Below, one piece after another: positions 37,894-58,796 of a stretch of 61,499 nt of DNA; positions within the stretch are counted from its first letter, which is position 1; every line of letters begins with the position of its first letter. Source of the stretch: a virus (Duplodnaviria; Heunggongvirae; Uroviricota; Caudoviricetes); the IMG/VR virus record IMGVR_UViG_3300029288_000054, positions 326,607 to 388,105 of that record; one strand, written 5' to 3'. A model generated the notes under the pieces. The model was given only the letters and a program-made list of their open reading frames with translations, did not search any database and was not told the origin of the DNA. A program made the translations under genes and the position numbers.

Positions 37894-37894
37894 T

Positions 37895-41440: not shown

Positions 41441-41474
41441 TATCTTCACCTGAAACATATTTTAGGTGAAGATC

Positions 41475-42371
41475 ATGCAATGCTCGCTCAGCTTACCATC
41501 ATATGTCGTTAATAGTAGTACGGAAACTATAAACTGGGGTTTGGTATGCGCAGGAATTCCAAACATATGGAAAATCACTAAAGGTCGTAATATCAAAGTC
41601 GCTGTACTCGATACTGGAATAGCACAACGACATCAAGACTTAGTAGGCTCTGTACTTGCTAGTGCCGACTTCACTGGTAGTAAAGGTGTCGAGGATAAAA
41701 TTGGGCACGGCACATTCTGTGCTGGTGTTATTGGTGCACGTCAGAATAATTTCGGAGTTATCGGAGTTGCACCAGAGTGTCAATTGCTAATCGGTAAAGT
41801 TGTAAATGATAGCGGTGCTTGCTACGATCAGGCAGTTGTGAATGGTCTTAATTGGGCTGTTGCTCAAGGTGCCGACGTCATCTCTATGAGCATAGGAACG
41901 CCATGCTCAACCGATTTATTACATAATGCCATAATTGCAGCATCACAGAAAGTGTGTATTGTTTGCGCTGCTGGTAATAATGGGTCGACTTTGGACGCCA
42001 TAAATTATCCAGCCAGATATCTTGAGACCATTGGTGTCGGTGCCATAGATCGCAACAAACGTCTCGCTGGTTATTCATCTCGCGGAGATCGTGTCGATAT
42101 TGTAGCACCGGGCGATAAGATTGTGTCATGCTGGCCACCTAATAGCATAGCAATGTTAAGCGGTACCAGCATGGCATGTCCATTTGTAGCTGGTATCGTA
42201 GCGCTTGTCGCCGCTGATCGTAAGAATGACGGAAGAGCACCATTAACTAAAGATCAAGTGGTTAGTCTATTATCAGAGGCGTCTATCAGTATTGGGCAGA
42301 TTGGCAGCGGCCATGGTCTTTTGGACCCAGCGGCTTTATTGCGTGAATCTGAAGAGCACTACCCAAAATAA
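41475..42371 (+). CDS. subtilisin-family (S8) serine peptidase
   Basis: VAVLDTG, HGTFCAG, AAGN, SGTSMACP: intact D/H/S triad; no signal peptide. Confidence 0.93.
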   Translation: MQCSLSLPSYVVNSSTETINWGLVCAGIPNIWKITKGRNIKVAVLDTGIAQRHQDLVGSVLASADFTGSKGVEDKIGHGTFCAGVIGARQNNFGVIGVAPECQLLIGKVVNDSGACYDQAVVNGLNWAVAQGADVISMSIGTPCSTDLLHNAIIAASQKVCIVCAAGNNGSTLDAINYPARYLETIGVGAIDRNKRLAGYSSRGDRVDIVAPGDKIVSCWPPNSIAMLSGTSMACPFVAGIVALVAADRKNDGRAPLTKDQVVSLLSEASISIGQIGSGHGLLDPAALLRESEEHYPK

Positions 42372-42482: not shown

Positions 42483-44402
42483 ATGCCTGCTAACTGGTTA
42501 GTTTGGGATCGGATTAGAGAATTTACCCGTTCTAACCGTATCTATCAACAGGAGCGGATACTTCAAGACCAATCTTCGATAGATAAACTAGCTGTCGGCG
42601 GGGATTTTCTAGACTTTTCTAGCCAGAATGCTATCCTACAGCAAACTAACCTTCAAATCAACCGTTTGGAGAGGTATAAAGACTATGAGCAGATGGATCA
42701 GACTGGCGAAATCTCTCTGGCTCTGGATCTTTATAGCGACGAATGCAGTCTTATAGATCCCGAATATAAGCACGGGTTGATTATTCGAGCTGCGAACAGG
42801 AGAATCAAAGAAGAGCTAGAGGAATTATTCTTTGATACGTTACTTATTGACCGATGGCTACGCCCGGCTGCTAGATATCTCTGTAAATTCGGTGATGCCG
42901 CTTTTGAGGTTGTCACTGATCGAAACCGCACTGGAATTTCATCATTGCGGTTCATGAATATCTATAACTTTACTCGAATTGAGACAAGGTTCGGCGATTT
43001 AGTAGGATTCTTCTATCAAGATGATATGTATCCAGAGCCGGTATTCATGCACCCATGGTCTTGCATGCATATGCGCCTGACGAATTTCGAATCAGTCTAT
43101 GCGCCATATGGCCGAGCTGTTATAGATGGTTCTCGCAAACCATTTAAACAATTGCGATTGATGGAAGATGCTTCGCTCATTTATCGAATAACGAGAGGTC
43201 CAGAAAAGCGAAAATACAAAATTCCGGTTGGAATGATTCCTCCTAAAGAGATTCCGGAATATCTGCTGAGCATTGCAAGAATGTTTAAGCGGCAGCGATT
43301 TTATAATCCAACTACTGGCACATTCGACGAGAGATTCTCACCAATCGTCCAAGAAGACGATTTCTTTCTACCGATGCGTCCTGATGGTTCTGGGCCAGAT
43401 ATTGAGGTTCTCCCTGGTGGCGAGAATATGGATAAGATATCTGACATCGAATACTTCAAGAAGAAAATGATTTCTCCCTTGAAGATACCATTTGCTAGGG
43501 TGGGTATTGGTGAAGGTGCTGGAGAACCAAACGAGAAATCATTAGCACAATCTGACGCCGAATTCGCTAAGGCCGTCCAATGGGTACAATCAGAAATAGC
43601 CCTTAGCCTACAGAAGATAGGAATTATTCATCTGGCTCTCCGAGGATATACGGTACAAGATATTAAGGGATTTAGTCTGTCGCTTGCTTCCAGCTCGGCG
43701 CTTGACGACCTCTACAGGATGGAGACTTGGGCTACTAGAGTTAGTGTTATGGCCGATCTGAAGGAAATTGGATGGTTCCCGAAGACCTGGATTGTCACTA
43801 GATTCACCGACCTATCACCTGATGAGATTCAGGAGATGGAAGAACTCGCCGAAGAGGAATCTGAAGGCCAGGGTGAAGGCGAAGAAGGTGGTGGTGGCGG
43901 CATTGGCGGAGATATGGGCGGTGACTTAGGTGGTGGAGAGGGCGACGACTTTGATATGGATGTTGATGTCGACACTGGTGAAGAGGGCGGCGAAGAGGGC
44001 GGAGAGGGTGGCGAAGGGGAAGAAGAAGGTGAAGAAGAGTTCGAGATAGAAGGCAAGAAGATCGAGCGTAAAGTAATTCTAGAGATACGCAAGGACGCTC
44101 GACGTAAGAAGCGATACAGTAATTTGGTCAAGGTGTCGCAGCGTGCCAAAAGAGCTTCAAACCCGTTCCAATTCTTGTTGGAATCAAAAGAGTTGGATGG
44201 TCTTACTAGATCTCTTCCCAAAAATGATGACGTATTGACTGAAGACGTGAATGGCAGTGAAGGTTTGCTGGTGGAATGGTCTGTGCCGGAGAAAGACCGC
44301 ATTGAGGCGATAGCGGAAATCAGGAATGTCCTCAGGGGTCAGCCGGTGGCAATAGCAACTGAGAATGATACTGATATTAGCCAAGATGACTTACCCACTT
44401 AG
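42483..44402 (+). CDS. gp20: portal protein
   Basis: YKDYEQMD, LRLMEDASLIYRITRGPEKR, EDDFFLP, LPGGEN, DIEYFKKK; acidic Gly-rich tail. Confidence 0.95.
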   Translation: MPANWLVWDRIREFTRSNRIYQQERILQDQSSIDKLAVGGDFLDFSSQNAILQQTNLQINRLERYKDYEQMDQTGEISLALDLYSDECSLIDPEYKHGLIIRAANRRIKEELEELFFDTLLIDRWLRPAARYLCKFGDAAFEVVTDRNRTGISSLRFMNIYNFTRIETRFGDLVGFFYQDDMYPEPVFMHPWSCMHMRLTNFESVYAPYGRAVIDGSRKPFKQLRLMEDASLIYRITRGPEKRKYKIPVGMIPPKEIPEYLLSIARMFKRQRFYNPTTGTFDERFSPIVQEDDFFLPMRPDGSGPDIEVLPGGENMDKISDIEYFKKKMISPLKIPFARVGIGEGAGEPNEKSLAQSDAEFAKAVQWVQSEIALSLQKIGIIHLALRGYTVQDIKGFSLSLASSSALDDLYRMETWATRVSVMADLKEIGWFPKTWIVTRFTDLSPDEIQEMEELAEEESEGQGEGEEGGGGGIGGDMGGDLGGGEGDDFDMDVDVDTGEEGGEEGGEGGEGEEEGEEEFEIEGKKIERKVILEIRKDARRKKRYSNLVKVSQRAKRASNPFQFLLESKELDGLTRSLPKNDDVLTEDVNGSEGLLVEWSVPEKDRIEAIAEIRNVLRGQPVAIATENDTDISQDDLPT

Positions 44403-44476
44403 AAGCAAACATTATTATATAAGCCAATCGAACTCTCCGAGTGTCGGAGCTGGTTGCAATCAAAGGGAGCTACTAC

Positions 44477-47400
44477 ATGGCCACTAAAGCCGAATGCCTC
44501 GTATTGGATAGCAGGAAGTTTCTTGGGACTATCAACAATTCTGCCCAAAGCAAAGTGGCTATGTATGAATCACTAGTCACCCAGCTCGGACAGCGTGTTG
44601 GAGCCAAGTGGCGGCTTGCGGCTCTCAACGAGGGCAACTTGTTCATCGAAGACACCAGCAATGGTGGTTACTACGCCGCGATCTACCAGCACTTACGTGG
44701 TGGTAAGGTGAACATAACGAATGTTCGCCCAATCAAAATCGTTGAAGGCCAGAAGCAGTCATTGTTCGAACAAGACTGTCACGGTTTGGTCAATGCTATC
44801 GAGGCGAATGATCAACGAGCTATGCGGACGACATTCAACAACCTTGCCGCCCACAAATTTTCTCCCCGCACACTGCCATCATCCGGCGTCATTCGTACAC
44901 GTGATGGTGTAATTCGTCGGCTTCAGGTCGAAGCACATCTGCACGGCTGGGACGACACCCAGAAGCAGAAGTTGGTGAAGGCTTTGGTTGAGAGCCTGTC
45001 GGATTCCGTCGTGCTCGAAAACGGCAGGGTCATCAGTGCTAGCTTCAATAGCGAGCGTCGTCAAAAGCTGCCGGTAAGCGAGTGGACATGCCGCAAGGTT
45101 GTCGGCACCCATATGCGTGAATCGGCCAAGCAGGCTTACAAGTCTGACGGATTCCAGAAACGCATCTACAAGATTGCCCAGTTGGTCGACGGCGATAAGA
45201 TTTCTGAAGCCGTCGCTGGCATCAAGGATTTCTTGGTCGAGCAGCAGGAATTCTGCTTACTGACACGCCAAGAGAGCAAGACACTCATCGAAAACACTCT
45301 GGCGTCCAGAGCAGTCATGAACCAACAGCTATGCAATGACGTTGCTACGCTGTTCTATCGCACAAACCTGAAAGTCAACCATGACTCCATTGTCAAGGAA
45401 TGGCGTGCGACGGCTGTGAAGTCGCAGCATCCGACACTCCTAGAGAACGTGAATGTTCTCGAAAAGACGAAGGACTTCGACGGCGACTACGACAAGTTTT
45501 TGAATATGACCTTCAACGAAGCCTTGTCGCCGCGTGATGAGGAAGTGAAGGCATATCGCACTGCTCTCGATCTGCTCCGCAACAGCCCCAAGATTCAAGA
45601 GGATGTTGAACTCAAGGAGAAAGTCGATGAGCTGATCGACAAACTATCCGAATCTGAAGTCGACGACGCCACGGTTTATCTGGTTCGCGAAACATTGGCT
45701 TCGGCTCACAAAGAGCTTGAGGCGATGGATACGCTGAACGATTACGACACCCACGGTGGACCAGAAACCAACGCCGGAATCGATGCCGGTGAAGAGCTTG
45801 GTGGTGAGATCGGCGGCGACCTTGATGGTGTCGCTGGTGGCGCTGGACAACCAAATATTGTCATCAACTCGCCTCTGATTCAAATTGGTGGTACATCCGG
45901 TGCCCCAGAAGGTGAAGCGGACCTCGGTGCCGATCTTGGTGGTGACGAGCTTGGTGGTGACGAGCTTGGTGGTGACGAGCTTGGTGGTGAAGAAGGCGGC
46001 GAGGAAGACCTCGAAGCACTCGGACTCGGCGACGAGGAAGAGGAAGGCGAAGAGGGGTTGGACGATCTCGGACTCGGTGGTGAGGAAGAAGACGAAGACG
46101 TCAACATCAACCTCGACAGCAAACAGAAGACCGAAACGCCTGTATCTGAGCGTGTCGCACGTAAGGCCCTCGGTATGGCCGAGGACAAGGAGTGGCTCAA
46201 GAACAAGATTGCCGAAAGAGAAGGCAAGAAGGACGAGGGCGACAAGAAGGATGAAGGCAGCGAAGGCAGCGAAGGCAGCGAAGAGGTCGATGAGTGCGAG
46301 ATGGAGTGTGATGAAGACGCCGATCCGTACGCCATGGGCGAGTCGGTCGAGTTCACTTCTAGCATGGGCATCGATTACGGTCGATCCATCCTCCGCGACG
46401 AAATGGACGACGTAGTTTCCAATATGTTCAAACTCGCCGAATCCAAGAATGTCGATCTTGAAGACATCGACGCACACAAGCTAGCGTTGGAGGCGATTAC
46501 TGCTTCTGGTCTGCGGATTCCGGAACACCGTATCAATGCCACTGTCGATAGCATTGTCGAACAGTTCAACCAGATTGCCGAAGATCAATATAAGAGCGGC
46601 ACTCTGATGCGTCGGCGTAATCCTCGACGCTCAAGCCTGGATAAGACTGAGCGGAAGAAACCATCCGGCAATAGTGTTGCTGAAATTGATGACGGAACGC
46701 CGCCAGAGGCCGATGCTGGTATAACCGGCGAAGGTCCGAAGAACGAATCGCGTATTCGACGCAATATCGTGTGGCTTGAACATGATGAGAGCGGCAAGGG
46801 GATCAAGGGTGATCTTGATGGTGTTCGATTCATCCTCGATTACGCTGAACCTTTCGTCATTCTCAGTGAAGATGGCAACGTGAATGTGCCAATTCCAGAA
46901 AATCTGTTCGAGAGTGCATTGTGTGCCGCTGGCTTAAGAGACGGCGACAGCAAACCATTTTCGAAGTGGCTCGCCCAAGGCATCGAGCAGTTCCGGCCAA
47001 TCACAGAAGAGGAAGACAATGCTCTTCAAGAAGCCGTAGCGACTATTACTGCTGGTAGCGACGGGTCAGTTTCGGTCTCGGTCGACACCGGTGTTGAAGG
47101 TGGCGGTGAAGAGCCGCAAGTCGACATCATTGGTGTCGGTGGTGCTGAGATGGGCGGAGAGATGGACATGGGTGGTGCTGGTGAGCAGAACGGGATGCAA
47201 CCAGTGACCGACCAGGGCATCGAACCCGAATCACCAGAAGCCCCGGAGGCTATTGCCGATGAGATGCCTAACTTTGAGGCTGGTAACACACCTGAACCCG
47301 AAGAGCAGCCCGAGGAGGAAATCGAGGGCGAAGAGAAAATCGTGGAAGATAAGGACATCACTGATCCGAAAAAGAGTGACTACGACACGACAAAGCAGGA

Positions 47401-47551
47401 TCACCGCGAGCCTCCAAAGGAGAAGGGTGCACAGAAGCCTAAGGGTAAAGGCAAAGAGCTAGAGGGCTTCGACTCAAATGGCAAGGTTGACGTCAGCGTT
47501 AAGGACGCTGGCAATCTCAAGCCCGTTAAGGCTGGCGAGAACAGAATCTAG
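44477..47551 (+). CDS. large acidic prohead core / internal head protein (putative)
   Basis: GGGAG SD before ATG 44477; follows portal; E/D/G-rich; many [LIV]xE sites; capsid-like codon bias. Confidence 0.6.
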   Translation: MATKAECLVLDSRKFLGTINNSAQSKVAMYESLVTQLGQRVGAKWRLAALNEGNLFIEDTSNGGYYAAIYQHLRGGKVNITNVRPIKIVEGQKQSLFEQDCHGLVNAIEANDQRAMRTTFNNLAAHKFSPRTLPSSGVIRTRDGVIRRLQVEAHLHGWDDTQKQKLVKALVESLSDSVVLENGRVISASFNSERRQKLPVSEWTCRKVVGTHMRESAKQAYKSDGFQKRIYKIAQLVDGDKISEAVAGIKDFLVEQQEFCLLTRQESKTLIENTLASRAVMNQQLCNDVATLFYRTNLKVNHDSIVKEWRATAVKSQHPTLLENVNVLEKTKDFDGDYDKFLNMTFNEALSPRDEEVKAYRTALDLLRNSPKIQEDVELKEKVDELIDKLSESEVDDATVYLVRETLASAHKELEAMDTLNDYDTHGGPETNAGIDAGEELGGEIGGDLDGVAGGAGQPNIVINSPLIQIGGTSGAPEGEADLGADLGGDELGGDELGGDELGGEEGGEEDLEALGLGDEEEEGEEGLDDLGLGGEEEDEDVNINLDSKQKTETPVSERVARKALGMAEDKEWLKNKIAEREGKKDEGDKKDEGSEGSEGSEEVDECEMECDEDADPYAMGESVEFTSSMGIDYGRSILRDEMDDVVSNMFKLAESKNVDLEDIDAHKLALEAITASGLRIPEHRINATVDSIVEQFNQIAEDQYKSGTLMRRRNPRRSSLDKTERKKPSGNSVAEIDDGTPPEADAGITGEGPKNESRIRRNIVWLEHDESGKGIKGDLDGVRFILDYAEPFVILSEDGNVNVPIPENLFESALCAAGLRDGDSKPFSKWLAQGIEQFRPITEEEDNALQEAVATITAGSDGSVSVSVDTGVEGGGEEPQVDIIGVGGAEMGGEMDMGGAGEQNGMQPVTDQGIEPESPEAPEAIADEMPNFEAGNTPEPEEQPEEEIEGEEKIVEDKDITDPKKSDYDTTKQDHREPPKEKGAQKPKGKGKELEGFDSNGKVDVSVKDAGNLKPVKAGENRI
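45935..45990 (+). repeat. 15-bp tandem repeat CTTGGTGGTGACGAG, 3 copies plus a partial (LGGDE)
   Basis: Exact in-frame tandem copies. Confidence 0.9.
46253..46279 (+). repeat. 9-bp tandem repeat GAAGGCAGC x3 (EGS)
   Basis: Exact in-frame tandem copies. Confidence 0.85.
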
Positions 47552-48014: not shown

Positions 48015-48073
48015 TATTCAGCAAAGATAATAGGGTTTTACCTCTGACTCTTATTTGCGTGGCTGAGGAATAT

Positions 48074-49054
48074 ATGCTCACAGGCATAATGGCCATCTTT
48101 AGTGCGATTTTCAGTGTAATAGCCAAAATCATATCGTTCATACCGTGGTGGTTTTGGGTTTGTTTGGCGATATTTCTGCTCGGCGGTTGGGTGTTTCATG
48201 GCGGTTCATGTCGTGATTTCGCTTGTAGCAGACATCGCGAGCCTAAACCAACTAAATGGGCTGAATATACAGTAACTAGTGCACTTACTGGGACAAGCCT
48301 AGAGGCTCGTATAGGTGCCCGTGGTCGGCGAACTAAATCTATAAATCTCGCTTATGTTGCCGCTCCATCAAATGAGCCGCTTGCTGAAGAGAGCCGCGCT
48401 TCATTAGAACGTCTCGCTGGTAACTTTGTCAGAGTGCCTTATTCAGGCATCAGAAAAATACCGGTTAAACCGGTTGCCGCCGAGCCAGTCAAAGCCGAGC
48501 CAGTCAAAGCTGCACCGGTCAAGACCGAAGAAGAAAAACCGAAACTCGTCAAATGTGACGAGTGTGGTGGCACCGGGAAAATATCTGACACTTGTGAAGT
48601 TAATTGCTTCTTCTGCCAGAAAGATCCAGAATGTCCTGAATGCCATGGGACTGGAAAACTGAAGCTGACTTACGACACTATCGAGAAGTGTCAAAGGATT
48701 ATCGAGAGCCACTGGGGCGATGATGGATGTAAGGGGTGCATAGATAATAATGGCCATCCATGTGCGGCTATTGCTCAACAATTGAAAGATATTGTAAAGG
48801 CCAATCCTAAACCTCAGACAATCAAATGCTTTGAATGTGGCGGGACTGGCAAACATTATGAAGAGCCGCCCGAAGCACAATTAATTGTTGGTTTGGTATA
48901 TAGTGCGTACGGGCAGTGTTTGAATACTGAGCAGGTCCGACTAGGGATGGCGAAATTGCTACCAGAGGCCCCAAAGGATTGGAAGAAGTATGAGGATGAG
49001 GCCAAGAGAAAAAATCTTGGGATTTGGAAGAAAGCGAGTGGTCGTCGCAAGTGA
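48074..49054 (+). CDS. membrane-anchored degenerate thermonuclease (SNase) fold with DnaJ-type Zn-finger insertion
   Basis: N-terminal TM; LNTEQVRLGMA and EDEAKRKNLGIWK SNase C-terminus; three CxxCxGxG repeats. Confidence 0.7.
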   Translation: MLTGIMAIFSAIFSVIAKIISFIPWWFWVCLAIFLLGGWVFHGGSCRDFACSRHREPKPTKWAEYTVTSALTGTSLEARIGARGRRTKSINLAYVAAPSNEPLAEESRASLERLAGNFVRVPYSGIRKIPVKPVAAEPVKAEPVKAAPVKTEEEKPKLVKCDECGGTGKISDTCEVNCFFCQKDPECPECHGTGKLKLTYDTIEKCQRIIESHWGDDGCKGCIDNNGHPCAAIAQQLKDIVKANPKPQTIKCFECGGTGKHYEEPPEAQLIVGLVYSAYGQCLNTEQVRLGMAKLLPEAPKDWKKYEDEAKRKNLGIWKKASGRRK

Positions 49055-49092
49055 TTCCCACTTGGTTAACCTAACCGATAGAGGGTGATACC

Positions 49093-49467
49093 ATGACTCA
49101 GATTATTGGTGTCGTAATTGTCGCACTAGCATTGGTCGCACTTGCAGCTTGGGTGTGGATTACGTGGGGCAAGAGCTCTACAGTCGGCCAGACCACAGGT
49201 GGCAAGATAGTCAGTGCTGCAATTGATACAGCAACTCTAACTGCCAATCTTGGTTATGTCGAACTGTTGAGTAAGATTGATGTCGTGAAAGCATCGCCAG
49301 ATGCGGTCAAGGCATGCGATATTCTTGCAGACACGCTCTGGCAGGGAGCGATTGCGGCATGGAAGACTGCACAAACCGTCGACACCACAACATCCGCTGC
49401 TGTTATCGCTAAAACAGCAAAAGTCACAACTACTGACGGCACTGTTGTGGAGGTTCCTGTCCAATGA
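49093..49467 (+). CDS. N-terminally anchored membrane protein
   Basis: GAGGG SD; hydrophobic N-terminus. Confidence 0.65.
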   Translation: MTQIIGVVIVALALVALAAWVWITWGKSSTVGQTTGGKIVSAAIDTATLTANLGYVELLSKIDVVKASPDAVKACDILADTLWQGAIAAWKTAQTVDTTTSAAVIAKTAKVTTTDGTVVEVPVQ

Positions 49468-49850
49468 CGAAGAAAATACTGCCACCAATCATCATCGTCT
49501 TGTTTCTTGCTATCGGCTTGACGATGATCGTTAAGCCTGACATAGTGCCATTCGGTACTTCCGGGGTGCCGGAGAGAGCCGTCATTTTGCGTGAGACTCA
49601 AGTCGACAAGCCACTATCGGAAGAGTGGGTCGAATTGTTTGCCGGTGCTGAGAAGCTAGGCATATCTGTCTGGGACAAGGATGTGCTTGGGAAGGCAAAG
49701 AAACCTTCGGCTGAAGCACAGCCATTTATTGATGCTGTTGGCGATAAACCACTTCCAATTCTGGCTTTGAAATGGCCTGGTGGTAAGATTACTACTATGC
49801 CATGTCCGTCAAAGTTGGACGCACTTAAGAAAGCCGCAGGCAAACAATGA
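49464..49850 (+). CDS. membrane-anchored or secreted protein
   Basis: Signal-like N-terminus; ATGA-coupled. Confidence 0.65.
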   Translation: MTKKILPPIIIVLFLAIGLTMIVKPDIVPFGTSGVPERAVILRETQVDKPLSEEWVELFAGAEKLGISVWDKDVLGKAKKPSAEAQPFIDAVGDKPLPILALKWPGGKITTMPCPSKLDALKKAAGKQ

Positions 49851-50611
49851 GCTTATATATTACCGACGACAATTTCGCTGATGTTGTAGCTGAAGGTGAG
49901 GCTGCTGGTTTCACCTTTGGTGCATTACCGCGACAAACGCAAATCGGCGATTTGGTATGTGCCCCGGTTTTCGCGGAGCATGTGCCGCTCATTCCTGAGA
50001 GTGAGTGGAGAGACCGAATCGCACAGATGACGGCTGCTGGTGCTTTTATCGGACAACGATGGAAGAGCGACCCGAACGCAGATTATCAGAATGGCCTTGG
50101 TTTCTGCTGGGCATACAGTTTAGCCGAAACGTGTATGTCTGTTCGACACGCGATGGGTCAGCCGTTTGTGCAGTTGTCTGCAGAGTCGTTGGCTGAGTGT
50201 ACCGGATATCGGAACGCTGGCTATTATCTCGATCGCGCATTGGAATATGCCTCAGCAAATGGTATCGCAACACGCGCAACCGTTCCACAACACAAAATAA
50301 GCCCATCGAAATGGGACCCGAGTTATAAGGATGAGCGACAGAACTACATGCCGCAAGAGTGGTGGGATCTTGGTGGCAGGGATGTTTGGGCCGAGACTGT
50401 AACTGCTCTGCTCCAAGGATGGGGCTGTTATGTTGGTTACGACTGGTGGCATCACGCTGTGTTTCTTGATATGCTGCGTGTCAATAACGGCAAGATCGAG
50501 GTCCATACTCCGAATTCTCATGGCCCAGGTAATGACGCGTGGCTCGTAGGATCGAAGGCCATCCCATCAATGGGTTCATTTGTACTTCGCGGTATGACCT
50601 TAGCTAATTAA
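49847..50611 (+). CDS. papain-like (C1-type) cysteine peptidase
   Basis: QNGLGFCWAYS (Gln/Cys), LSAESL, HHAV (His), PNSHG (Asn). Confidence 0.75.
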   Translation: MSLYITDDNFADVVAEGEAAGFTFGALPRQTQIGDLVCAPVFAEHVPLIPESEWRDRIAQMTAAGAFIGQRWKSDPNADYQNGLGFCWAYSLAETCMSVRHAMGQPFVQLSAESLAECTGYRNAGYYLDRALEYASANGIATRATVPQHKISPSKWDPSYKDERQNYMPQEWWDLGGRDVWAETVTALLQGWGCYVGYDWWHHAVFLDMLRVNNGKIEVHTPNSHGPGNDAWLVGSKAIPSMGSFVLRGMTLAN

Positions 50612-50622
50612 GCTGAGGAATC

Positions 50623-51636
50623 ATGTCTAAGAAGGCGCTGATCACCGGTATAACCGGCATGGACGGGAGTCATTTATGTGAACTTCTCCTTTCTAAAGGT
50701 TATGAAGTTCATGGGCTGATACGTCGATCAAGCAGTTTCAATACTGAACGTATCGAATCGATGTATCAGGACCCGCATGTGAAAGAAGCACGGATGTTTC
50801 TGCACTATGGCGATATGACCGACGGTATAGGTCTTTCTGATCTTATCAAGAGGGTTGCACCAGATGAGGTCTATAACCTGGCAGCCCAAAGCCACGTCCG
50901 CGTCAGCTTCGATATGCCTGTCTATACGACACAATCGATAGCTATCGGAACGCTACAATTATTAGAAGCAATAAGGGGCTTCAACGCTAAAATCAAGTTC
51001 TATCAGGCTTCTAGTAGCGAAATGTATGGCAAGGTTGTTGAAACTCCGCAAACAGAATTGACACCATTCTACCCACGTAGCCCATATGGGTGTGCAAAGG
51101 CGTTTGCGTACTGGCAGACAATCAACTACCGCGAAGCCTATGGCATATTCGCATGTAACGGGACGCTATTCAATCACACAGGTCATAAGCGTGGTGAGAC
51201 ATTCGTTACGAGGAAGGTGACGCGTGCAGCGACACGCATCAAATTAGGCTTACAAAATAAACTATTCCTTGGCAACTTAGACGCCAAGAGAGACTGGGGA
51301 TACGCAGGCGATTATGTTGAAGCTATGTGGCTTATGCTGCAGCACAACGTCCCTGGCGATTACGTAATCTCCGCAGGCGAGACCAGATCAGTTCGAGAAT
51401 TTGTCGAAGAGGCATTTGGATTACTCGATTTGGATTGGAACAAATATGTTGAAATAGACCCACGATATTTTCGACCGACAGAGGTTGATTTGTTATTGGG
51501 TGATTCTTCTAAAGCTAGAAGAATTCTTGGATGGGAGCCCAAAGTCACATTCAAACAATTAGTGAAAATGATGGTCGAGCATGATATGGAATTGGCTCGG
51601 TCTGAGAAGATCTTACGAGACTCCAAAAGATCATGA
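50623..51636 (+). CDS. gmd: GDP-mannose 4,6-dehydratase
   Basis: [53 protein letters not shown]. Confidence 0.98.
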
Positions 51637-52574
51637 TTGACTTCGCAAACGACCGTATCTTAGTAACTGGTGCCGCTGGCTTTCTTGGTAAGAACGTCCA
51701 AGCCATATTTCGGTTGGCAGGCGTACCTGATAAGAATTTGCTGACACCAGGAATCGAGGATTACAACCTCACTTATGAAAACAGCGTTTCGCGGATGTAT
51801 CACGATCTCAAGCCGGATGTAGTCGTGCATTTGGCTGCACTTGTTGGCGGTATTGGTGCGAATCGAGAAAATCCTGGCAGATTTTTCTACCACAATATGA
51901 TAATGGGCGTGCATCTGATCGAGCACGCACGACGCAACAAAATCAAGAAATTCGTTCAGGTCGGCACTATTTGTGCGTATCCGAAACATACAAAGGTCCC
52001 ATTCTGCGAAGAAGACTTATGGAACGGCTACCCAGAAGAAACAAATGCACCGTATGGAATTGCGAAAAAAGCATTGCTAGTAATGTTGCAGGCTTATCGG
52101 CAACAATATGGTATGAATGGAATCTTTTTGCTGCCGGTCAACCTGTACGGCCCAGGCGACAATTTCGATCCAAAGAGTTCTCACGTCATACCGGCCCTAA
52201 TTCGCAAGTTTCAAGAGGCCAAAGACAAAGGCGAAAATCGAGTCGTTATGTGGGGAAGCGGCAAAGCAAGCCGTGAATTTCTATATGTTGAGGACTGCGC
52301 CAGAGCACTAGTGATGGCGACTAGATCATACGATCACCCAGAGCCAGTGAATATTGGAGCTGGGTTCGAAATTACCATCTATGATCTCGCCATAAAAATT
52401 GCGAGACTTGTTGGTTTTGATGGTGAAATTTTCCACGACTTGACGAAGCCGGATGGCCAGCCGCGAAGATGCCTTAATGTGCAAAGGGCGTGTACGGAGT
52501 TTGGGTTTAGTGCAGAAACGCCGTTTGATGTCGGGTTAGAACGAACAGTCCAGTGGTGGAAAAGCCACAAATGA
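51633..52574 (+). CDS. fcl: GDP-L-fucose synthase (epimerase/reductase)
   Basis: [53 protein letters not shown]. Confidence 0.96.
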
Positions 52575-52741
52575 ACCACGCGATAGCATGTCTGTTTGGA
52601 GGATTCCCCGTAATAGGTAGGTTCTTCTGCTTATTTGGATTTCATGTCTGTAAAGACCCGGCGTACATGTTCGAAAATTCAAATCCAGACTACTTTAAGT
52701 GCTGCGTATGCGGTAGAACGATAGAGACGTATCAGAAATGA
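52571..52741 (+). CDS. small Cys/His-rich protein
   Basis: ATGA-coupled; CLFGFH...CCVCG. Confidence 0.5.
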
Positions 52742-53403
52742 TCGAAATTGTCACCCATTGTTTTGGTGAGAGATTTGCTACACTTCTGAACTATCATTTA
52801 AGCTCTATCGTCCTTAATGAAAGTCAGCCGGTTACTGTGACCGTTATATTCGCCACTAATGATAAGCTGACAACCAAAGTATTGTCGCATTTCGGTGTTA
52901 TCAATCGACCATGGATAACGTGGAATTTCATTCATATGCCTATCCAATCGGTATATCAAAGGCCGATTGGTCGTAATCTTGCTGCAAAGTCGTCAAAAGC
53001 GGATGTTATATGGTTTACTGACGCCGATTATGTGTTTGGCGATGGATGTTTGAATGCAGTATGGGTCCCGCAAGACGACGGTGTATATCGCCCGGAGCAT
53101 GAATATCGCACCACTCGTAAAGCGAAAGTGCAGATGATCGATGCTTTATTGAAAAAATCAGATATTGAAGCTGGTGTGGTATCTATCGATCCGTCACAAT
53201 TCGTCTCAACCAATATCAGGCGTGCAGTCGGTGGTGTTCAAATAATTTCTGGCGACACAGCACATAAAATTGGTTATTTGCCTGATAATAAGGAGTGGCA
53301 AAAGCCGCTAGAACAATATAACCGTGATGATGGTAGTGCATTCTGGCGTAATCTGTTTACTAGATTCGGAACAATGGCAATTCCTAACGTTTTCAGGATA
53401 TAA
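52738..53403 (+). CDS. GT-A fold glycosyltransferase (GT2-like)
   Basis: GRNLAAKSSKADVIWFTDADYVF (RN motif + DxD), late DD motif. Confidence 0.75.
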   Translation: MIEIVTHCFGERFATLLNYHLSSIVLNESQPVTVTVIFATNDKLTTKVLSHFGVINRPWITWNFIHMPIQSVYQRPIGRNLAAKSSKADVIWFTDADYVFGDGCLNAVWVPQDDGVYRPEHEYRTTRKAKVQMIDALLKKSDIEAGVVSIDPSQFVSTNIRRAVGGVQIISGDTAHKIGYLPDNKEWQKPLEQYNRDDGSAFWRNLFTRFGTMAIPNVFRI

Positions 53404-53663
53404 TGGTCGTCATTGAAAAGAACCGGCTGCAGTCGTTCGAGATCAAGACGCTCAAGCATAATATACTGTGTAAGTGTGGCAAGGGAATTATGATAGGTAC
53501 TGGTGCTGTTAGGTCTGCTAATGGTGCCTCAGGACCTGCAAGCAGATACGACCATCAACACAAATGCAATGTCTGTGGTGTGATTGAATGGTTTTCGGAC
53601 AAATATCCAATGCGCGAGGAGCGTGAAGTCCCAGTCACTCCAGATGAAGGGGTCATCAAATGA
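53403..53663 (+). CDS. small Zn-ribbon protein
   Basis: CKCGKG...HKCNVCG...YP. Confidence 0.55.
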   Translation: MVVIEKNRLQSFEIKTLKHNILCKCGKGIMIGTGAVRSANGASGPASRYDHQHKCNVCGVIEWFSDKYPMREEREVPVTPDEGVIK

Positions 53664-54133
53664 AAACGATACTTCCTATCGTTGGTTGTGTACTGTTAGT
53701 AGTTGGCATAGGGATTATATTATATGCCAATGGCGACATCGTGACGCCAAACGATGTTCCGGTGACTCCCGCAGAACCCATCGAACCAGTGAAGCCGAAA
53801 CCGAAACCAGGTTCGACACCTGGTTCAGAGCAAGGCTCCACTCCAGCACCACCGGTGCCTGCTGATGAACCCGCTAAGGCTGTGAATCCGCTGAAGGCAC
53901 CTGTTGCAGACGAGCCTTGTACAACTGGTGTGTGCCCTTATAAGAAGACAGAACAACCTGCTGGAGCCGCTAAGAATCAATATACACCAGTGCCATGGGC
54001 TACGGTACCGGGTATTCCAGAACCAGAACCACCGCAAGCAGCACCGCAAGCAGCACCGCCAGCAGCCGAGTCGAACACAGAGACCGTCACGATAACAAGA
54101 GGCCCTTTGCGTAGGTTGCTAAGGAGGAATTGA
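53660..54133 (+). CDS. Pro-rich membrane-anchored protein
   Basis: N-terminal TM, Pro-rich body, CTTGVCP, basic tail RGPLRRLLRR. Confidence 0.65.
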   Translation: MKTILPIVGCVLLVVGIGIILYANGDIVTPNDVPVTPAEPIEPVKPKPKPGSTPGSEQGSTPAPPVPADEPAKAVNPLKAPVADEPCTTGVCPYKKTEQPAGAAKNQYTPVPWATVPGIPEPEPPQAAPQAAPPAAESNTETVTITRGPLRRLLRRN

Positions 54134-54531
54134 TGTTTTCACTACTTAGCACTAGATGCCAGAGGTCTGTAGAATATTGGGAAGGCTGGCAAGCCGTAGA
54201 ATTGCATAAGCAATGTACTTATACCGACCCAAAACAACGTAAAGAGTGGGCTAAGGGATTCGCTGATGGTGTGAAGGAGATGCGTGGCAATAAGTCGTGG
54301 TATAAGAGCCGGACAATGATTGTTGGTTTATTTATGTTAGCTGTCGGCGTTGGCCTTATCGGGTATGGGTTATACTTCGGAGGTCCTTCCGAGAAGACGC
54401 TCATCGGTGCTGGAACCGGCGTGACAGCCATGAGTATAGTAATGGCAGCATTACGCTTGATCACAAACAGCAATATTAGCCTCGGTGGTGGCGGTGGCGG
54501 TCAGTATACACCGCCGCCATTTACTCAGTAG
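54130..54531 (+). CDS. two-TM holin-like protein with Rmf-like N-terminal motif
   Basis: AGGAGG SD; YWEGW...CTY...EWAKGF; KSWYKSRT followed by two TM helices. Confidence 0.5.
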   Translation: MMFSLLSTRCQRSVEYWEGWQAVELHKQCTYTDPKQRKEWAKGFADGVKEMRGNKSWYKSRTMIVGLFMLAVGVGLIGYGLYFGGPSEKTLIGAGTGVTAMSIVMAALRLITNSNISLGGGGGGQYTPPPFTQ

Positions 54532-54787
54532 CGGTTTCTACACCTATATCGCTACTTGCGTGCTGCAAATTGACAATCACGCACAAGTGGCAGGTACTTC
54601 TATCAGGGCACGTATAACCACAGTATAGCTCACGCATCAGCCATCCATATTTCTTAACGAAATCTGCAATCCCTTCAGCTTCACCAGGGATTTTATTATA
54701 CCATTTGTGTCTTGCGAGGTGTCGCTCGATTATATCGACCTCGCACTTTAGGAATTCAGCCAGATGAGCGCATTGTTGGTCGGCCAT
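54521..54787 (-). CDS. hypothetical Cys/His-rich protein (88 aa)
   Basis: GGAGAGGAG SD precedes ATG at 54787. Confidence 0.6.
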   Translation of the reverse strand: MADQQCAHLAEFLKCEVDIIERHLARHKWYNKIPGEAEGIADFVKKYGWLMRELYCGYTCPDRSTCHLCVIVNLQHASSDIGVETATE

Positions 54788-54835
54788 AGTTGCTCCTCTC
54801 CAATATCTTTCAACAAACTTATCGAAGAGGATATC

Positions 54836-54967
54836 ATGAAACTCAAGCTGTTGAGTGAGGGGCATTGGGTAAAGGCAGATCCGACTAAGCGTATGTCTTT
54901 TCTACTACATCCTTCAGATAGAGAGAAATTCATTCGGTGGGGTAAAAAGAAGCCGAAACGTAAATAA
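54836..54967 (+). CDS. small basic protein, possible internal head protein
   Basis: GAGG SD; MKLKLLSE leader; Lys-rich tail. Confidence 0.45.
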   Translation: MKLKLLSEGHWVKADPTKRMSFLLHPSDREKFIRWGKKKPKRK

Positions 54968-54971
54968 CTAC

Positions 54972-55250
54972 ATGAAAGCTAAATGCCCATTCTGTACTGC
55001 TGGTTGTCCTAAATGTGAGAATAGCGGAAAAATTAATGTCCGGTTTGCTGAAGGTAACGTCTGGACTAGAGCATGTCTTGATGAAACCTGCGGATTCGAA
55101 AACGGGGGCCGCATTCAAAAGGGTGACAAGGAGCCTCCAGAGCCTTCCGGACCGTGCGTTATGTGCAATGGACCAACTAAGTGGCTACTTATAGGATGTT
55201 TTAACGATACGAGGACAGAAGTACAGAATGATACTACTGGGCAAAAATAA
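54972..55250 (+). CDS. Cys-rich Zn-binding hypothetical protein
   Basis: CPFC, CPKC, CxxxxC and CVMC motifs. Confidence 0.55.
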   Translation: MKAKCPFCTAGCPKCENSGKINVRFAEGNVWTRACLDETCGFENGGRIQKGDKEPPEPSGPCVMCNGPTKWLLIGCFNDTRTEVQNDTTGQK

Positions 55251-55295: not shown

Positions 55296-55976
55296 ATGGA
55301 CAAGATCAAGCAGCTTTTGCAAAAATGTGGTCTTACAGCCGAGGTTTCAACGCAATTATGCGAAGCCATCGACAACCACGCAAGCATGCTGAAGGAACAG
55401 TCGGAGACGGAATTTCAGGCACGCCTCGCGAAAGCGAAGAAGGTGTGTTTCGAGGAAGTTGAAGCCCACAAGGCAGAGCTTTCTCGTCGGCTCCAAATCT
55501 TCTTGGAAGCTAAGAACTCTACTATCGAAGAGCTCGTTATGCGGCAGTCGGCCAATAGGGAAACTGAAGCTGTTGCCAAGCTCGAAAAAATCTATGCTCT
55601 CCTAGAGGGCATTGAGCTTAATGGCCAGTCAAACAGTGAACTTAAGACCGAACTCGACAAGTTCAGGAAGCTCGCAGAGCATCTCGTAGAAGAGCGCGAT
55701 AGCGCCATCTCCAAAGCGAAGCGTTGCATGCAGATTTCCGAGAGAGTTCTCAAGCGCAATCGCGGCTTGGAACAATCTCTGAATGAAAGCAGACAATCGC
55801 CGAACACTGGAAGGATTGATGCATCCCGTGCGGCAGCCCAGCGGAAGACGACCCAACGGACTCTTAAGGAGAACGTTGAGCAACCGCAAGCTCCGAAGCG
55901 TGAAGCACCGATCAACACCATGAATCCGCCACGTAGTCCCGCTGAGATTGCTGGCGTCATGGACGAGGTAGTCTGA
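55296..55976 (+). CDS. prohead scaffolding protein, gp22-like
   Basis: AGGAG SD; coiled-coil protein immediately upstream of the MCP. Confidence 0.75.
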   Translation: MDKIKQLLQKCGLTAEVSTQLCEAIDNHASMLKEQSETEFQARLAKAKKVCFEEVEAHKAELSRRLQIFLEAKNSTIEELVMRQSANRETEAVAKLEKIYALLEGIELNGQSNSELKTELDKFRKLAEHLVEERDSAISKAKRCMQISERVLKRNRGLEQSLNESRQSPNTGRIDASRAAAQRKTTQRTLKENVEQPQAPKREAPINTMNPPRSPAEIAGVMDEVV

Positions 55977-56063
55977 ACCGCTCGATCTTCGAATCTGCAT
56001 CATAGCATGTAGCTGTGCTCTGTTGATTCGCCGATGCACACATTTACTACAAGGAATACGCAT

Positions 56064-57674
56064 ATGTTGGCAACTCGCCAAAACAAGAAACCGGCTCCCC
56101 AAGGCCGTCACTTGACCGAATCGCGTAATCGCCAGACGATTACGGAAGCCACCGACCCGCATCAGGCTTCAGTCCTGTACGAGTCCACCAAGAACCCGAT
56201 GGTTCAGCGTTGGGCTCCGGTCCTCCACAAGTGCCGCGAGATCCGGCCCTCCAAGATGGGCTTGATGTCCGCCATTTTCGAGAACCAGTACAAGCACATG
56301 AACCCGACCGGTCGCTCGCTGATCTTGGAAGATCAGACGACAACCGGCAACATCGCCGACTTTACCCGGTTCGCGTTGCCCTTGCTCCGCAAGAGCTTCC
56401 CCAAGCTGATCGCTGACAACCTCGTCGGCGTCCAGCCCATGAGCCAACCGGCCAGCTTGATCTTCTACATCCGCTACAAGTACGCCATGACGAAGGGCCA
56501 GACAATCGCTGGTACCCAGATCATGCGTCAAAACACTTCGCAAGCCTATGCGAAGCAGAACGGATGGGCGTTGGACCCGTACTACTCTTCGCAAGAAGTG
56601 CACGGCGAAGACGCGACCATTCAGCCCGGTGGAATGGTCATCACGCAGACTCTCGCCCATCGCCCGGTCCTCGCTGGAACGGTCATGGTCGAAGTGTACG
56701 ACAACGCCGCAGCGGCTTCGCCCGATTGCGACAATTCCGTGCCTTGCCTCCGCGTGAGCTTCGACGCCAACGGTGCTGCTGATGTCGTCGTGGTCGGCGA
56801 TTGCAGTGGTACGATGGGCACCATCAGTGTTGACACCACGACCCCTGGGGCCACGGCGTTCAATCACACGACAGGTGCGGTCCAGGTCACGATGGGTGGC
56901 GGCATTCCTTTGCCAGCCGACGCCATCGCTCGTGTGAACTACGAGTACGACCTCGAAGCCAACCCCTTCCAGCCTGAAGTGACCTTGAGCATCGACAGTG
57001 ACAGCGTTGCTGCTGTTACCCGCAAGCTCAAGACATCTTGGTCGCTGGAAGCCGCTCAAGATCTCAAGTCGGTGCACAACATCGACGCCGAGAGCACCTT
57101 GACGGACCTGATGGCCGACGAGATGGTTGCGGAAATCGACCGCGAAATCATCAACGACCTCATCATCGCCGCTGCGATTCGTGCTACGCACAACTTCGCC
57201 ACGGCAGCCGGGGCTTCGGTGAACTTCACGGATCGCAACATCGCCTTGCTGTACAAGGTGCTTGAAGTTGCGAACATCATCCACAGAACCACATTGCGTG
57301 GTCCTGCTAACTGGATGGTGACCTCCGCCGACATCAGCTCGAAGTTCGAGCAACTGAACGACTTCCGCTCGTCAGACGCTTTTGTCCAAGAAGGTGTGGA
57401 CATCGGCATCATGAACGCGGGAACCATTCAGGGCAAGCTGCGGTTGTACAAGGACCCGCTCTTCCCGAACTGCAAGATTCTCTTGGGCTTCAAGGGATCG
57501 AGCGTTCTGGATGCCGGGTACTTCTACGCTCCGTACATCCCGCTGCTCTCGACGCCGACAGTGCTCGACCCGAACAGTCATACCCCCACCAAGGGGATTA
57601 TGACACGTTATGGGAAGAAGCTGATCGAAGACGGTGGCCTGTACTATGGTACTATAAACGTGACCAATCTCTAG
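56064..57674 (+). CDS. gp23: major capsid protein, T4 gp23 family
   Basis: LVGVQPMSQP, TRKLKTSWSLEAAQDL, EIDREII, GYFYAPYIPL, GIMTRYG. Confidence 0.98.
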   Translation: MLATRQNKKPAPQGRHLTESRNRQTITEATDPHQASVLYESTKNPMVQRWAPVLHKCREIRPSKMGLMSAIFENQYKHMNPTGRSLILEDQTTTGNIADFTRFALPLLRKSFPKLIADNLVGVQPMSQPASLIFYIRYKYAMTKGQTIAGTQIMRQNTSQAYAKQNGWALDPYYSSQEVHGEDATIQPGGMVITQTLAHRPVLAGTVMVEVYDNAAAASPDCDNSVPCLRVSFDANGAADVVVVGDCSGTMGTISVDTTTPGATAFNHTTGAVQVTMGGGIPLPADAIARVNYEYDLEANPFQPEVTLSIDSDSVAAVTRKLKTSWSLEAAQDLKSVHNIDAESTLTDLMADEMVAEIDREIINDLIIAAAIRATHNFATAAGASVNFTDRNIALLYKVLEVANIIHRTTLRGPANWMVTSADISSKFEQLNDFRSSDAFVQEGVDIGIMNAGTIQGKLRLYKDPLFPNCKILLGFKGSSVLDAGYFYAPYIPLLSTPTVLDPNSHTPTKGIMTRYGKKLIEDGGLYYGTINVTNL

Positions 57675-57707: not shown

Positions 57708-57745
57708 GAGCCGGGTGAGGAAACGCTCTTCACCCGGCTCTTTTT
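57708..57745 (+). terminator. rho-independent terminator after the MCP
   Basis: GAGCCGGGTGA / TCACCCGGCTC 11-bp stem followed by TTTTT. Confidence 0.85.
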
Positions 57746-57790: not shown

Positions 57791-58796
57791 ATGGATGAAG
57801 CAACACCTGAAACTCGAATCTGTCGGAAGTGCGGCGACTCAAAGCCGCTAGACCAATTTTCTGTGGGGTCGTGCCACTTGCAAGACCTGCCAAGCCGCCT
57901 ATAAGCGAGATCTTCGCAAAGGCATTCTACATCCGCAGACCAAACCAGAAGTACGGATTTGCCGCGAATGCCGCAAACCAGAGACTGAGGTCGAATTTAG
58001 ACCTAAGGCTAATATTTGTGTTCCTTGTTTCAAGATCTATCTTGCGAATTATCGTAATGAGAATCGCGATAAGCTGCGCAAGCAGGTTCGAGATTGGAAG
58101 GACACGAACAGAGAGCAGCTACGCGAGACAAATCGCAAACTCTATCATACGCCAGAAGGCAAGGCGATGCATAGAGCTAGAGTTTGCAAGACTCCGAGGA
58201 CATGGCTTTCTCATTTGTTAAGCATTACTCGTGCTAACTCAATCAAGCCGGGACCTCATGATCCTAAGTCCGGTCCGAAACGTGATTTCGACCTGGACCT
58301 CGATTACGTCGTCTCTCTCTATGAATCCCAGCAGGGCAAGTGTGCCATTACTGGAGTCAAGATGACTCATATGTTCAATGATATGAACGCTATGAGTATC
58401 GATCGCATCGACCCCGAACAAGGCCATATCAAAGGCAACATCCATCTCATCTGTCAATGGGCCAATTTTGCCAAGCGACATCATAAGCTTGCTGTTTTCC
58501 GGCGAGCTTTATCTGATTTTATGTCTGTTATGTATCAACGATTTCTAGGAGGTGCCAGAATGTCAGAGCCAATCACTGCTAATGCCCAGACCCTAATGAA
58601 CCAAGCGCCGGCGACCGTCGATGTTTATCTGACGGAAGCGGTAAAATCGATTGACGATCATCTTGGCAAGGGGTATTCTCAAAAGAATCCTGGATTGGTC
58701 GCTGCGTTTATTCAAACGTGTGCGATCGATCTTGGGTGCGCTGTGTTAGCACAGCAACTTCGTGCTGGATTGGAAAATATCCGAATAGGCGGCTAA
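57791..58796 (+). pseudogene. HNH/EndoVII-like endonuclease with a +1 frameshift near 57857-57868, fused in frame to the downstream gene
   Basis: RICRKCG..KPLDQF in one frame continues as GRATCKTC...CREC...CVPC...QQGKCAITG...SIDRIDP..GHIKGNIHLICQWAN in the +1 frame. Confidence 0.65.
58560..58796 (+). CDS. small hypothetical protein nested in frame at the HNH C-terminus
   Basis: Strong AGGAGGT SD 6 nt before ATG 58560. Confidence 0.55.
   Translation: MSEPITANAQTLMNQAPATVDVYLTEAVKSIDDHLGKGYSQKNPGLVAAFIQTCAIDLGCAVLAQQLRAGLENIRIGG

Follow-up and report, generated by a model that had tools for sequence, protein, structure and literature searches.

A GDP-L-fucose cassette in the head module of a huge phage: a recent accessory insertion with a possible role in virion glycosylation

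The DNA analysed here (the window) is the final 61.5 kb of a 388,105-bp virus record, IMGVR_UViG_3300029288_000054, which is 99% complete according to CheckV. It spans the late structural genes of a jumbo phage whose morphogenesis genes are of T4 type. Within this region, between the portal and the genes for a probable scaffolding protein and the major capsid protein (MCP), lies a cassette in which gmd and fcl, the two genes of GDP-L-fucose synthesis, are translationally coupled to a small open reading frame (ORF) and to a gene for a glycosyltransferase (GT). The head module and the cassette are laid out as follows, in window coordinates, with sizes in amino acids (aa), TM denoting a transmembrane segment and "subclade" the relatives whose MCP is at least 92% identical to that of the window.

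42483-44402, plus strand: T4-type portal protein, gp20-like (PF07230 E 3.2e-62, phrog_213)
44441-47551, plus strand: 1036-aa head-module protein, found clade-wide between portal and scaffold
48059-49054, plus strand: 331-aa protein with an N-terminal TM (residues 10-28) and a DnaJ-type CxxCxGxG zinc finger (PF00684 E 5.8e-5, below cut-off)
49093-49850, plus strand: two small, translationally coupled single-pass membrane proteins of 124 and 128 aa (TM at residues 5-23 in each), subclade only
49847-50611, plus strand: papain-like (C1) cysteine peptidase homolog, directly upstream of gmd (PF00112 21.3 bits, cut-off 20.7)
50623-51636, plus strand: gmd, GDP-mannose 4,6-dehydratase (TIGR01472, PF16363)
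51633-52574, plus strand: fcl, GDP-L-fucose synthase (GDP-4-keto-6-deoxymannose 3,5-epimerase/4-reductase), from PDB matches and catalytic positions
52553-52741, plus strand: small hydrophobic Cys-rich ORF, 62 aa from a GTG or 56 aa when started at ATG 52571, whose overlap with the fcl stop reads ATGA
52738-53403, plus strand: 221-aa predicted soluble GT-A fold, GT2-like glycosyltransferase with a DxD motif
53403-53663, plus strand: 86-aa Cys-rich (zinc-ribbon-like) protein, coupled to the GT through a TAATG junction
53660-54531, plus strand: two predicted membrane proteins, one of 157 aa (signal-anchor, Pro/Thr-rich region) and one of 133 aa (central TM), with ATGA and TGATG junctions; end of the coupled run
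54521-54865, minus strand: convergent 114-aa gene, 55-93% identical in L001-L009, overlapping the 3' end of the 133-aa gene
54972-55250, plus strand: 92-aa Cys-rich zinc-ribbon-like protein, from its sequence, subclade only
55296-55976, plus strand: probable scaffolding protein, from its position and its helical, charged composition
56034-57674, plus strand: MCP, gp23-like (PF07068 E 7.9e-78, phrog_138)

From gmd through fcl and the small ORF to the GT gene, each of the three junctions reads ATGA; the GT gene is joined to its successor by TAATG, and a GAGGA precedes gmd. The first-pass annotation had described the coupled genes as lying on the same strand as the head genes within a single late structural operon. 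Their coordinates, strand and junctions are as it described, but the single operon is not, as the minus-strand 114-aa gene stands between the cassette and the scaffold and MCP genes. Because this convergent gene closes the coupled run, which ends at 54531, scaffold and MCP probably form a separate unit. The small Cys-rich ORF, counted earlier as a member of the cassette, is present and coupled here and 73-85% identical in five of eight close relatives, but is absent from the other three (L003, L007 and L008); it has one hydrophobic segment and is dispensable. Counted over its full length (48059-54531), the inserted cassette has five or six genes for small single-pass membrane proteins and three for Cys-rich zinc-ribbon-like proteins, all of them co-translated with the genes for Gmd, Fcl and the GT. 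The papain-like peptidase homolog, which is translationally linked to gmd, has catalytic-type motifs in its sequence (FCWAYS, HAV and NSHG) and is confined to the subclade, where it is 78-98% identical. We considered it as a prohead protease and rejected the idea, the wider clade having no such gene at this position.

The pathway assignment is well supported. Gmd scores 528.6 bits against the equivalog model TIGR01472 (cut-off 415) over residues 3-324 of 337 and matches PF16363 over positions 1-332 of 332 (E 4.5e-140). The 18 best PDB matches of Fcl are all GDP-L-fucose synthases (E 8e-68 to 7e-35), with the next enzyme class at 1e-22, 40 orders of magnitude behind. Fcl also keeps the Ser/Thr-Tyr-Lys triad and the Cys and His residues of epimerisation in the motifs GTICAYP, YxxxK and SSHVIP, and these (with SSHVIP extended to SSHVIPALI) align to GSSCIYP, YAIAKIA and SSHVLPALI of 7ll6. 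Against NF047922 it scores 295.5 bits, under the strict cut-off of 500; this is by far its best NCBIfam model, the next reaching 93.6 bits. The identification of Gmd and Fcl as a GDP-L-fucose pathway in the first-pass annotation is thereby borne out by the TIGR01472 match, the PDB relatives and the catalytic residues, and the two enzymes would convert GDP-mannose supplied by the host to GDP-L-fucose; no match to ManC (NTP_transferase) was found in the genome, in a search in which the positive controls matched. Among records of cultured phages, gmd reaches only ~65% identity over 560 bases at the DNA level with cyanophage gmd genes, including that of Synechococcus phage ACG-2014f.

For the third enzyme, the 221-aa protein, no match above threshold of its own was found in Pfam, PHROGs or NCBIfam. 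A database search recovered 22 homologs, two of which come with PF00535 as a precomputed annotation; the protein itself scores 15.3 bits against PF00535 (gathering threshold 23.3), and 9 of 17 family members match the model singly at E <=0.1, the best at 3.7e-6. In an alignment of 17 homologs down to 27% identity, D95 and D97 of the DxD motif, D42, and R75/G78/R79 are invariant, and D42, R75..G78-R79 and D95-x-D97 make up the GT2-type nucleotide- and metal-binding signature. The AlphaFold model has a pLDDT of 94.9, its top Foldseek match is SpsA, and no TM segment is predicted. On the basis of the signature residues, the PF00535 matches, the modelled fold and the lack of a TM segment, we are confident in predicting a soluble GT-A, GT2-like glycosyltransferase that represents an unannotated, mostly viral family; the earlier call of a DxD glycosyltransferase holds, given the invariance of the motif, the PF00535 matches among homologs and the predicted GT-A fold.

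For this enzyme there is mild evidence that its donor is not GDP-fucose. The five characterised GT2 fucosyltransferases, WrtF and four relatives, have GADD or N(A/S)GD in place of DxD, and the canonical DxD has been argued to suit axially linked donors rather than GDP-beta-L-fucose (PMC12595478). In contrast to these GT2-type fucosyltransferases (the WrtF, GtfD and WbdO group), the phage family keeps a canonical, invariant D-A/x-D. A profile search of PDB sequences at E <=1 returned only TarP (6h1j, E 0.011) and not WrtF (9omh). The canonical DxD and the lack of similarity to WrtF would together mildly disfavour GDP-fucose as donor. A tblastn search with the 221-aa protein against 50,697 phage records, mycobacteriophages included, gave no match at E <=1e-3.

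Elsewhere the family moves about with glycan islands of phages: its members in 28 unrelated viral contigs, at 28-39% identity, are located in small islands together with their own paralogs, Methyltransf_24 (sugar O-methyltransferase-like), a CTP_transf_3 cytidylyltransferase, a GT8-like gene and an SDR dehydratase. The wider flanks of these islands, compared in 19 unrelated phages, hold mostly helicase, primase, clamp-loader and DNA-methylase families, and none of the 25 commonest families in them is a head or tail family. The family is not tied to virion modules.

This neighbourhood is one of two points in favour of sugars being placed on the bases of the phage's DNA, for restriction evasion; the other is the description of phage GTs that hypermodify DNA with a variety of glycans (Pyle 2024, cited in PMC12619734). 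We nevertheless consider DNA modification highly improbable. No thymidylate-synthase-type hydroxymethylase (PF00303) was matched anywhere in the genome, in a search in which the positive controls matched, so that the exclusion of DNA modification in the first-pass annotation now extends from the window to the genome. For the GT family in other phages, glycosylation by way of hydroxymethyl-pyrimidines was likewise rejected, a thymidylate-synthase-type gene being present in only 1 of the 19. Nor is any DNA-glycosylation system known to have GDP-fucose, CMP-Kdo or GT families 10, 11 or 31 among its components.

To place the cassette in its evolutionary setting, we surveyed synteny in 80 viral contigs whose MCPs are 72-96% identical to that of the window. 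The full order, shared by L001-L009, L050, L051 and L099, runs from the portal through the 1036-aa protein, the 331-aa protein, two TM proteins, the peptidase, gmd, fcl, the 62-aa ORF (not always present), the GT, the 86-aa Cys-rich protein, two further TM proteins, the minus-strand gene and the 92-aa Cys-rich protein to scaffold and MCP. The ~7-kb block between the 1036-aa protein and the scaffold gene occurs only in relatives with MCPs at least 92% identical, as does the 331-aa zinc-finger protein with which it begins. In ~60 relatives (MCP 72-84% identical) portal, 1036-aa protein, scaffold and MCP follow each other without it, and the distance from the 1036-aa gene to the scaffold gene is within ~0.8 kb. 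Given this restriction, the block is an accessory insertion in one narrow lineage, and a recent rearrangement.

The pathway itself is older than its location. Among 21 large records of the clade, 12 contain a strong Gmd (>420 bits), and gmd and fcl orthologs are present in five of the seven clade genomes that are at least 98% complete. Outside the sublineage, however, gmd stands alone, 45-50 kb from the MCP gene at the boundary between DNA ligase and the neck/tail-sheath module, and the fcl orthologs (53-57% identical) are at another site again; in G007, for instance, the two genes are located at 59 kb and at 302 kb. As gmd and fcl are clade-wide but dispersed, GDP-fucose synthesis is ancestral to this huge-phage clade and widely kept, only the clustering in the head module being new.

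The GT has a different distribution. It is found only in G000, G001, G002 and G005 (and in L001-L009). No copy exists anywhere in the assembled records of G003 (L052) and G004 (L053), two genomes that still have gmd and fcl in their head module and also retain the 86-aa Cys-rich protein, and it is absent from every wider-clade genome examined, including those with gmd and fcl. It is also the fastest-evolving gene of the block, with 47-50% identity between close relatives whose MCPs are 92-96% and whose Gmd and Fcl are 81-84% identical. In G004, ~0.9 kb without a long ORF lies between gmd and fcl (L053:5596-6508) and may be a decayed insertion. Contigs from four studies show the cassette, GT included, to be near-identical in landfill and groundwater samples, with no clean deletion joint found; in these data, homologs of other organisms account for the peaks in depth and the loose ends at gmd and fcl.

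Position in the head operon had been the ground on which the first-pass annotation proposed fucosylation of virion proteins. That placement is not conserved, ~60 relatives having no block, and the argument from it is weak: the insertion is subclade-specific, gmd and fcl lie elsewhere in the wider clade, two relatives with gmd and fcl in their head module lack the GT, a convergent gene intervenes, and the GT family in other phages stands beside replication genes. The head-module position itself therefore carries little information on function, although virion glycosylation is still the likeliest single reading, on other grounds given below. For genome scans in general, a sugar cassette in a head module may be a recent accessory insertion, and its position alone should not be taken as evidence of function.

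The same survey bears on the specific proposal that the adjacent 221-aa GT is a fucosyltransferase acting on capsid or head proteins during head assembly. The ATGA coupling of fcl, small ORF and GT, the location between portal and MCP conserved in the contigs with the full gene order, and the fast evolution of the GT, as expected of a specificity-determining enzyme, would all fit it. Several observations nonetheless make this improbable. Relatives, both within and beyond the subclade, have gmd and fcl but not the GT; the invariant DxD departs from the characterised GT2 fucosyltransferases (PMC12595478), and no similarity to WrtF was detected at E <=1. Members of the family elsewhere keep company with methyltransferases, a cytidylyltransferase and replication genes. 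Finally, the MCP has no obvious subclade-specific Ser/Thr extension, its lengths matching across the clade.

More orthodox candidates for the use of GDP-fucose are encoded elsewhere in the genome, together with enzymes for two other sugar donors (genome coordinates).

74696-75520, minus strand: GT10-like alpha1,3/4-fucosyltransferase (PF00852 35-36 bits, cut-off 23.9)
101873-102616: KdsB, CMP-Kdo synthetase (over equivalog cut-off)
205859-206872: GalE (over equivalog cut-off)
239636-240400, plus strand: GT11-like alpha1,2-fucosyltransferase (PF01531 32.3 bits, cut-off 23.9; HIRRGDY, containing the HxRRGD motif)

The GT10-like protein has the complete alpha1,3-fucosyltransferase donor motif FxxxxENSxxxxYxTEK...IPIYWG (here ENS..YFTEK..IPIYWG) and aligns to the Helicobacter pylori fucosyltransferase (5zoi/2nzw) at E 5e-8; a GT31-type gene adjoins it. 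GT10 and GT11 genes co-occur in the sublineage (G000, G004 and G005), where they are adjacent in G004 and G005. G013 has a GT10 gene; in G007 and G008, gmd and fcl occur without a gene of either family. Judged from these families, the 221-aa GT is not the likeliest fucosyltransferase of the phage, and the GT10- and GT11-type genes probably are. A search for O-fucosyltransferases with PF10250 was uninformative, as it matched none of the controls.

Glycosyltransferases are numerous in this genome: five GT2 proteins, including one in which the GT2 domain occurs twice, are accompanied by a GT4-methyltransferase fusion and a Methyltransf_24 protein, and none of the genome's GTs has a predicted TM segment. 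Genes for lipid carriers and export were sought genome-wide with PF02397, PF00953, PF01943 and PF04932 (initiating phosphoglycosyl transferase, flippase, and polymerase/ligase), and none was matched, whereas the positive controls were. The KdsB gene hints at a Gram-negative host or at a Kdo-containing phage glycan. The region at 266-273 kb, with GT2, GT4-methyltransferase and Methyltransf_24 genes, is also the neighbourhood of a gene for a 546-aa radical SAM protein (genome 260213-261853; L045:214-1854, minus strand) that matches PF04055 at E 1.5e-18 and has a weak GT2-like match.

Possible acceptors were sought with a script scan of the genome, which found five proteins of 933-2085 aa with mucin-like Ser/Pro/Thr tracts of 90-230 aa. 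The one in the window belongs to the tail module:

15409-18432, plus strand: 1007-aa tail-module protein with a Pro/Ser-rich (SPSPS) tract of ~165 aa, which we infer to be a candidate O-glycan acceptor

Its neighbours are a tail protein (12633-15407, phrog_17517) on one side and the baseplate wedge on the other. It has no orthologs outside the subclade, so that a test for covariation of tract and gmd failed. Of the other tract proteins, two are directly upstream of two GT2 genes and two are 6-11 kb from the GT10/GT31 pair; genome 278970-284580 and 82389-85940 are among the tract-bearing stretches. As a group they are nearer to GT genes than expected by chance, though only suggestively so (0.063 in a circular-shift test). 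One of the regions with GT2 genes, where two of them and a DnaE fragment are found, includes an adjoining gene for a 460-aa actin-family protein (genome 288699-290081; L139:9800-11182) that matches the Pfam family Volactin, PF25216, at E 9.6e-42.

We interpret the locus as a GDP-L-fucose supply cassette whose product most likely goes to the phage's own virion proteins, a reading to which we assign a probability of roughly 0.4. It is favoured because soluble GTs are many, genes for export and lipid carriers and a hydroxymethylase were not matched, and mucin-like tracts are present in phage proteins, one of them in the tail module. Under this model, one narrow lineage of the clade would have acquired the ~7-kb accessory insertion between a portal-proximal head gene and the scaffold gene. 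Gmd and Fcl would make GDP-L-fucose from host GDP-mannose in a phage that has no ManC of its own, and the cassette would co-translate an accessory soluble GT-A enzyme, the donor of which may well be another sugar nucleotide. The fucose would feed a genome-wide set of soluble cytoplasmic GTs, its most orthodox consumers being the GT10-type (alpha1,3/4) and GT11-type (alpha1,2) enzymes, possibly joined by the adjacent GT. The acceptors would be virion proteins, for which the large fibre- or adhesin-like proteins with mucin-like tracts are likelier candidates than the capsid protein, and they would be glycosylated in the cytoplasm before assembly. A more elaborate form of this proposal, in which the virion fibres bear, on their mucin-like Ser/Pro stalks, fucosylated glycans resembling Lewis/H structures that are made by a GT31, the GT10 and GT11, several GT2s and the new GT-A family, as a self-contained cytoplasmic O-glycosylation system of this sublineage within a clade of 340-410-kb phages with their own GDP-fucose synthesis, strikes us as speculative and, on balance, rather unlikely. 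If real, such stalk glycans would amount to a bacteriophage version of mucin-type glycosylation, serving as a shield or to mimic the host.

A number of points weigh against virion glycosylation, and most of them speak for a serious rival, in which the soluble GTs act on lipid-linked intermediates of the host (lipopolysaccharide (LPS) O-chain or core, capsule, or S-layer glycan) and borrow the host's machinery for initiation, flipping and ligation, with superinfection block or altered cell-surface properties as the effect. Soluble or peripheral GTs are also the norm in O-antigen and capsule assembly on host undecaprenyl pyrophosphate carriers, so that the lack of TM segments and export genes in the phage is compatible with a host-surface target as well. 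Gmd, Fcl, GalE and KdsB are classic LPS and capsule donor enzymes, and GDP-fucose, UDP-galactose and CMP-Kdo together form a typical Gram-negative donor set. GT10 and GT11 enzymes build Lewis/H-type epitopes on the LPS of H. pylori. The co-translation of the cassette with five or six small membrane proteins and the papain-like peptidase also speaks for an envelope target, and the two tract proteins upstream of GT2 genes adjoin replication genes such as DnaE as well, which leaves their membership of the virion only putative. Similar clusters in T4-like phages, the gmd/fcl/fucosyltransferase/GT genes of cyanophage S-SCSM1 (PMC9602691) and the GT islands of pelagimyophages (PMC7029224), have been read as modifying the host cell wall or O-chain.

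Other considerations reduce the appeal of host-envelope remodelling, which we regard as possible but somewhat unlikely. The phage has no matches to an initiating transferase, flippase, polymerase or ligase, although host enzymes could substitute for these. More than ten GT domains would be a large investment for a lytic phage that merely decorates host glycans, and the mucin-like tracts of its own proteins offer a ready acceptor. A host with LPS is, moreover, only putative: the nearest catalogued MCP, from an uncultured 595-kb phage, is only 38% identical and the clade has no cultured member, so that a host could not be inferred. Virion glycosylation remains the leading reading and host-envelope remodelling its main competitor.

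The components of this system have precedents. In Synechococcus phage S-SCSM1, adjacent gmd (ORF121) and fcl (ORF122) genes are accompanied by an O-fucosyltransferase, an alpha1,2-fucosyltransferase, NodZ and several GTs (PMC9602691). The two phages share a T4-type head, adjacent gmd and fcl, fucosyltransferase-family genes and several soluble GTs, and in both the target is putative. They differ in that gmd and fcl here are inside the head module, with the fucosyltransferase genes 140-300 kb away, in a 388-kb genome from landfill or groundwater whose adjacent GT belongs to an unannotated family. The host-recognition cluster of pelagimyophages and cyanomyophages is likewise a sugar-nucleotide and GT island inside a T4-like structural region that varies between close relatives, but it lies between VrlC and gp14 beside tail-fibre genes (PMC7029224), whereas the present cassette is between a portal-proximal head gene and the scaffold gene and contains membrane proteins and a papain-like peptidase rather than fibres.

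Closer to the mechanism proposed here are the mycobacteriophages, for which Che8 gp110, Corndog gp38 and Myrna are described as cases of soluble phage GTs acting in the cytoplasm on the phage's own structural proteins (Freeman 2023, as reported in PMC12363180 and PMC12619734). According to the same two reports, glycans have been demonstrated there on capsid and tail-tube proteins, whereas those proposed here are putative. Chlorovirus PBCV-1 encodes its own GMD and GMER and cytoplasmic GTs, and carries fucose-containing glycans on its major capsid protein (PMC7019647, PMC4691112). It resembles this phage in combining virus-encoded Gmd and Fcl with soluble GTs, independently of host ER/Golgi or export machinery, in a large genome; it differs in being a eukaryotic virus of an unrelated capsid lineage with solved capsid glycan structures (PMC7019647, PMC4691112), and its likeness to the window GTs is not one of shown homology. 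WrtF of Rhizobium tropici (PDB 9omh) is a GT2-family fucosyltransferase of GT-A fold that is metal-independent and has its DxD replaced (PMC12595478), whereas the phage GT keeps the motif.

Phage gmd and fcl genes with fucosyltransferases, GT islands in structural regions, GMD and GMER feeding capsid glycans, and virion glycosylation in phages have therefore all been described before. To these the present analysis adds an unannotated GT-A family of viruses, concrete candidates for enzymes and acceptors, and a dated rearrangement by which a pathway ancestral to the clade came to lie in the head module. The mycobacteriophages with virion glycosylation are not known to encode a GDP-fucose pathway. 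If fucose does go to virion proteins, self-glycosylation of phages would extend from mycobacteriophages to uncultured huge phages, and GT10 or GT11 with the Ser/Pro-tract proteins would be testable pairs of enzyme and acceptor.

Further morphogenesis genes of the window are as follows.

5722-8565: tail sheath, with baseplate hub and wedge genes also in the window
39488-41440: large terminase
41466-42371: S8 subtilase (PF00082 E 5e-50, phrog_3677), between large terminase and portal

No gp21-type prohead protease was seen, and maturation may be the task of the S8 subtilase. A 345-aa protein (37883-38920), encoded shortly before the terminase, has weak ferritin-like, rubrerythrin and EncFtn matches (E ~1e-5). 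Searches of Pfam, PHROG and NCBIfam gave no match for the 1036-aa protein, homologs of which (29-82% identity) adjoin the portal in relatives. The putative scaffold protein has no family match in Pfam or PHROG either; its gene is directly upstream of MCP in 80 of 80 relatives. Sigma-70-like promoter matches in the window are at chance level (22 against 20.5 expected), and CAAANWTA, a candidate late promoter motif, is not enriched (18 against 19 expected); it does occur at 48022, ~30 nt before the cassette begins, and at 55242, ~47 nt before the scaffold gene, but these copies were not used as evidence. The sole strong terminator of the region, with a 14-bp stem, follows MCP at 57708-57740. Just beyond it, an HNH/endonuclease VII-like gene (58167-58796) is present at this site in some members of the clade and absent from others, as expected of a mobile homing endonuclease.

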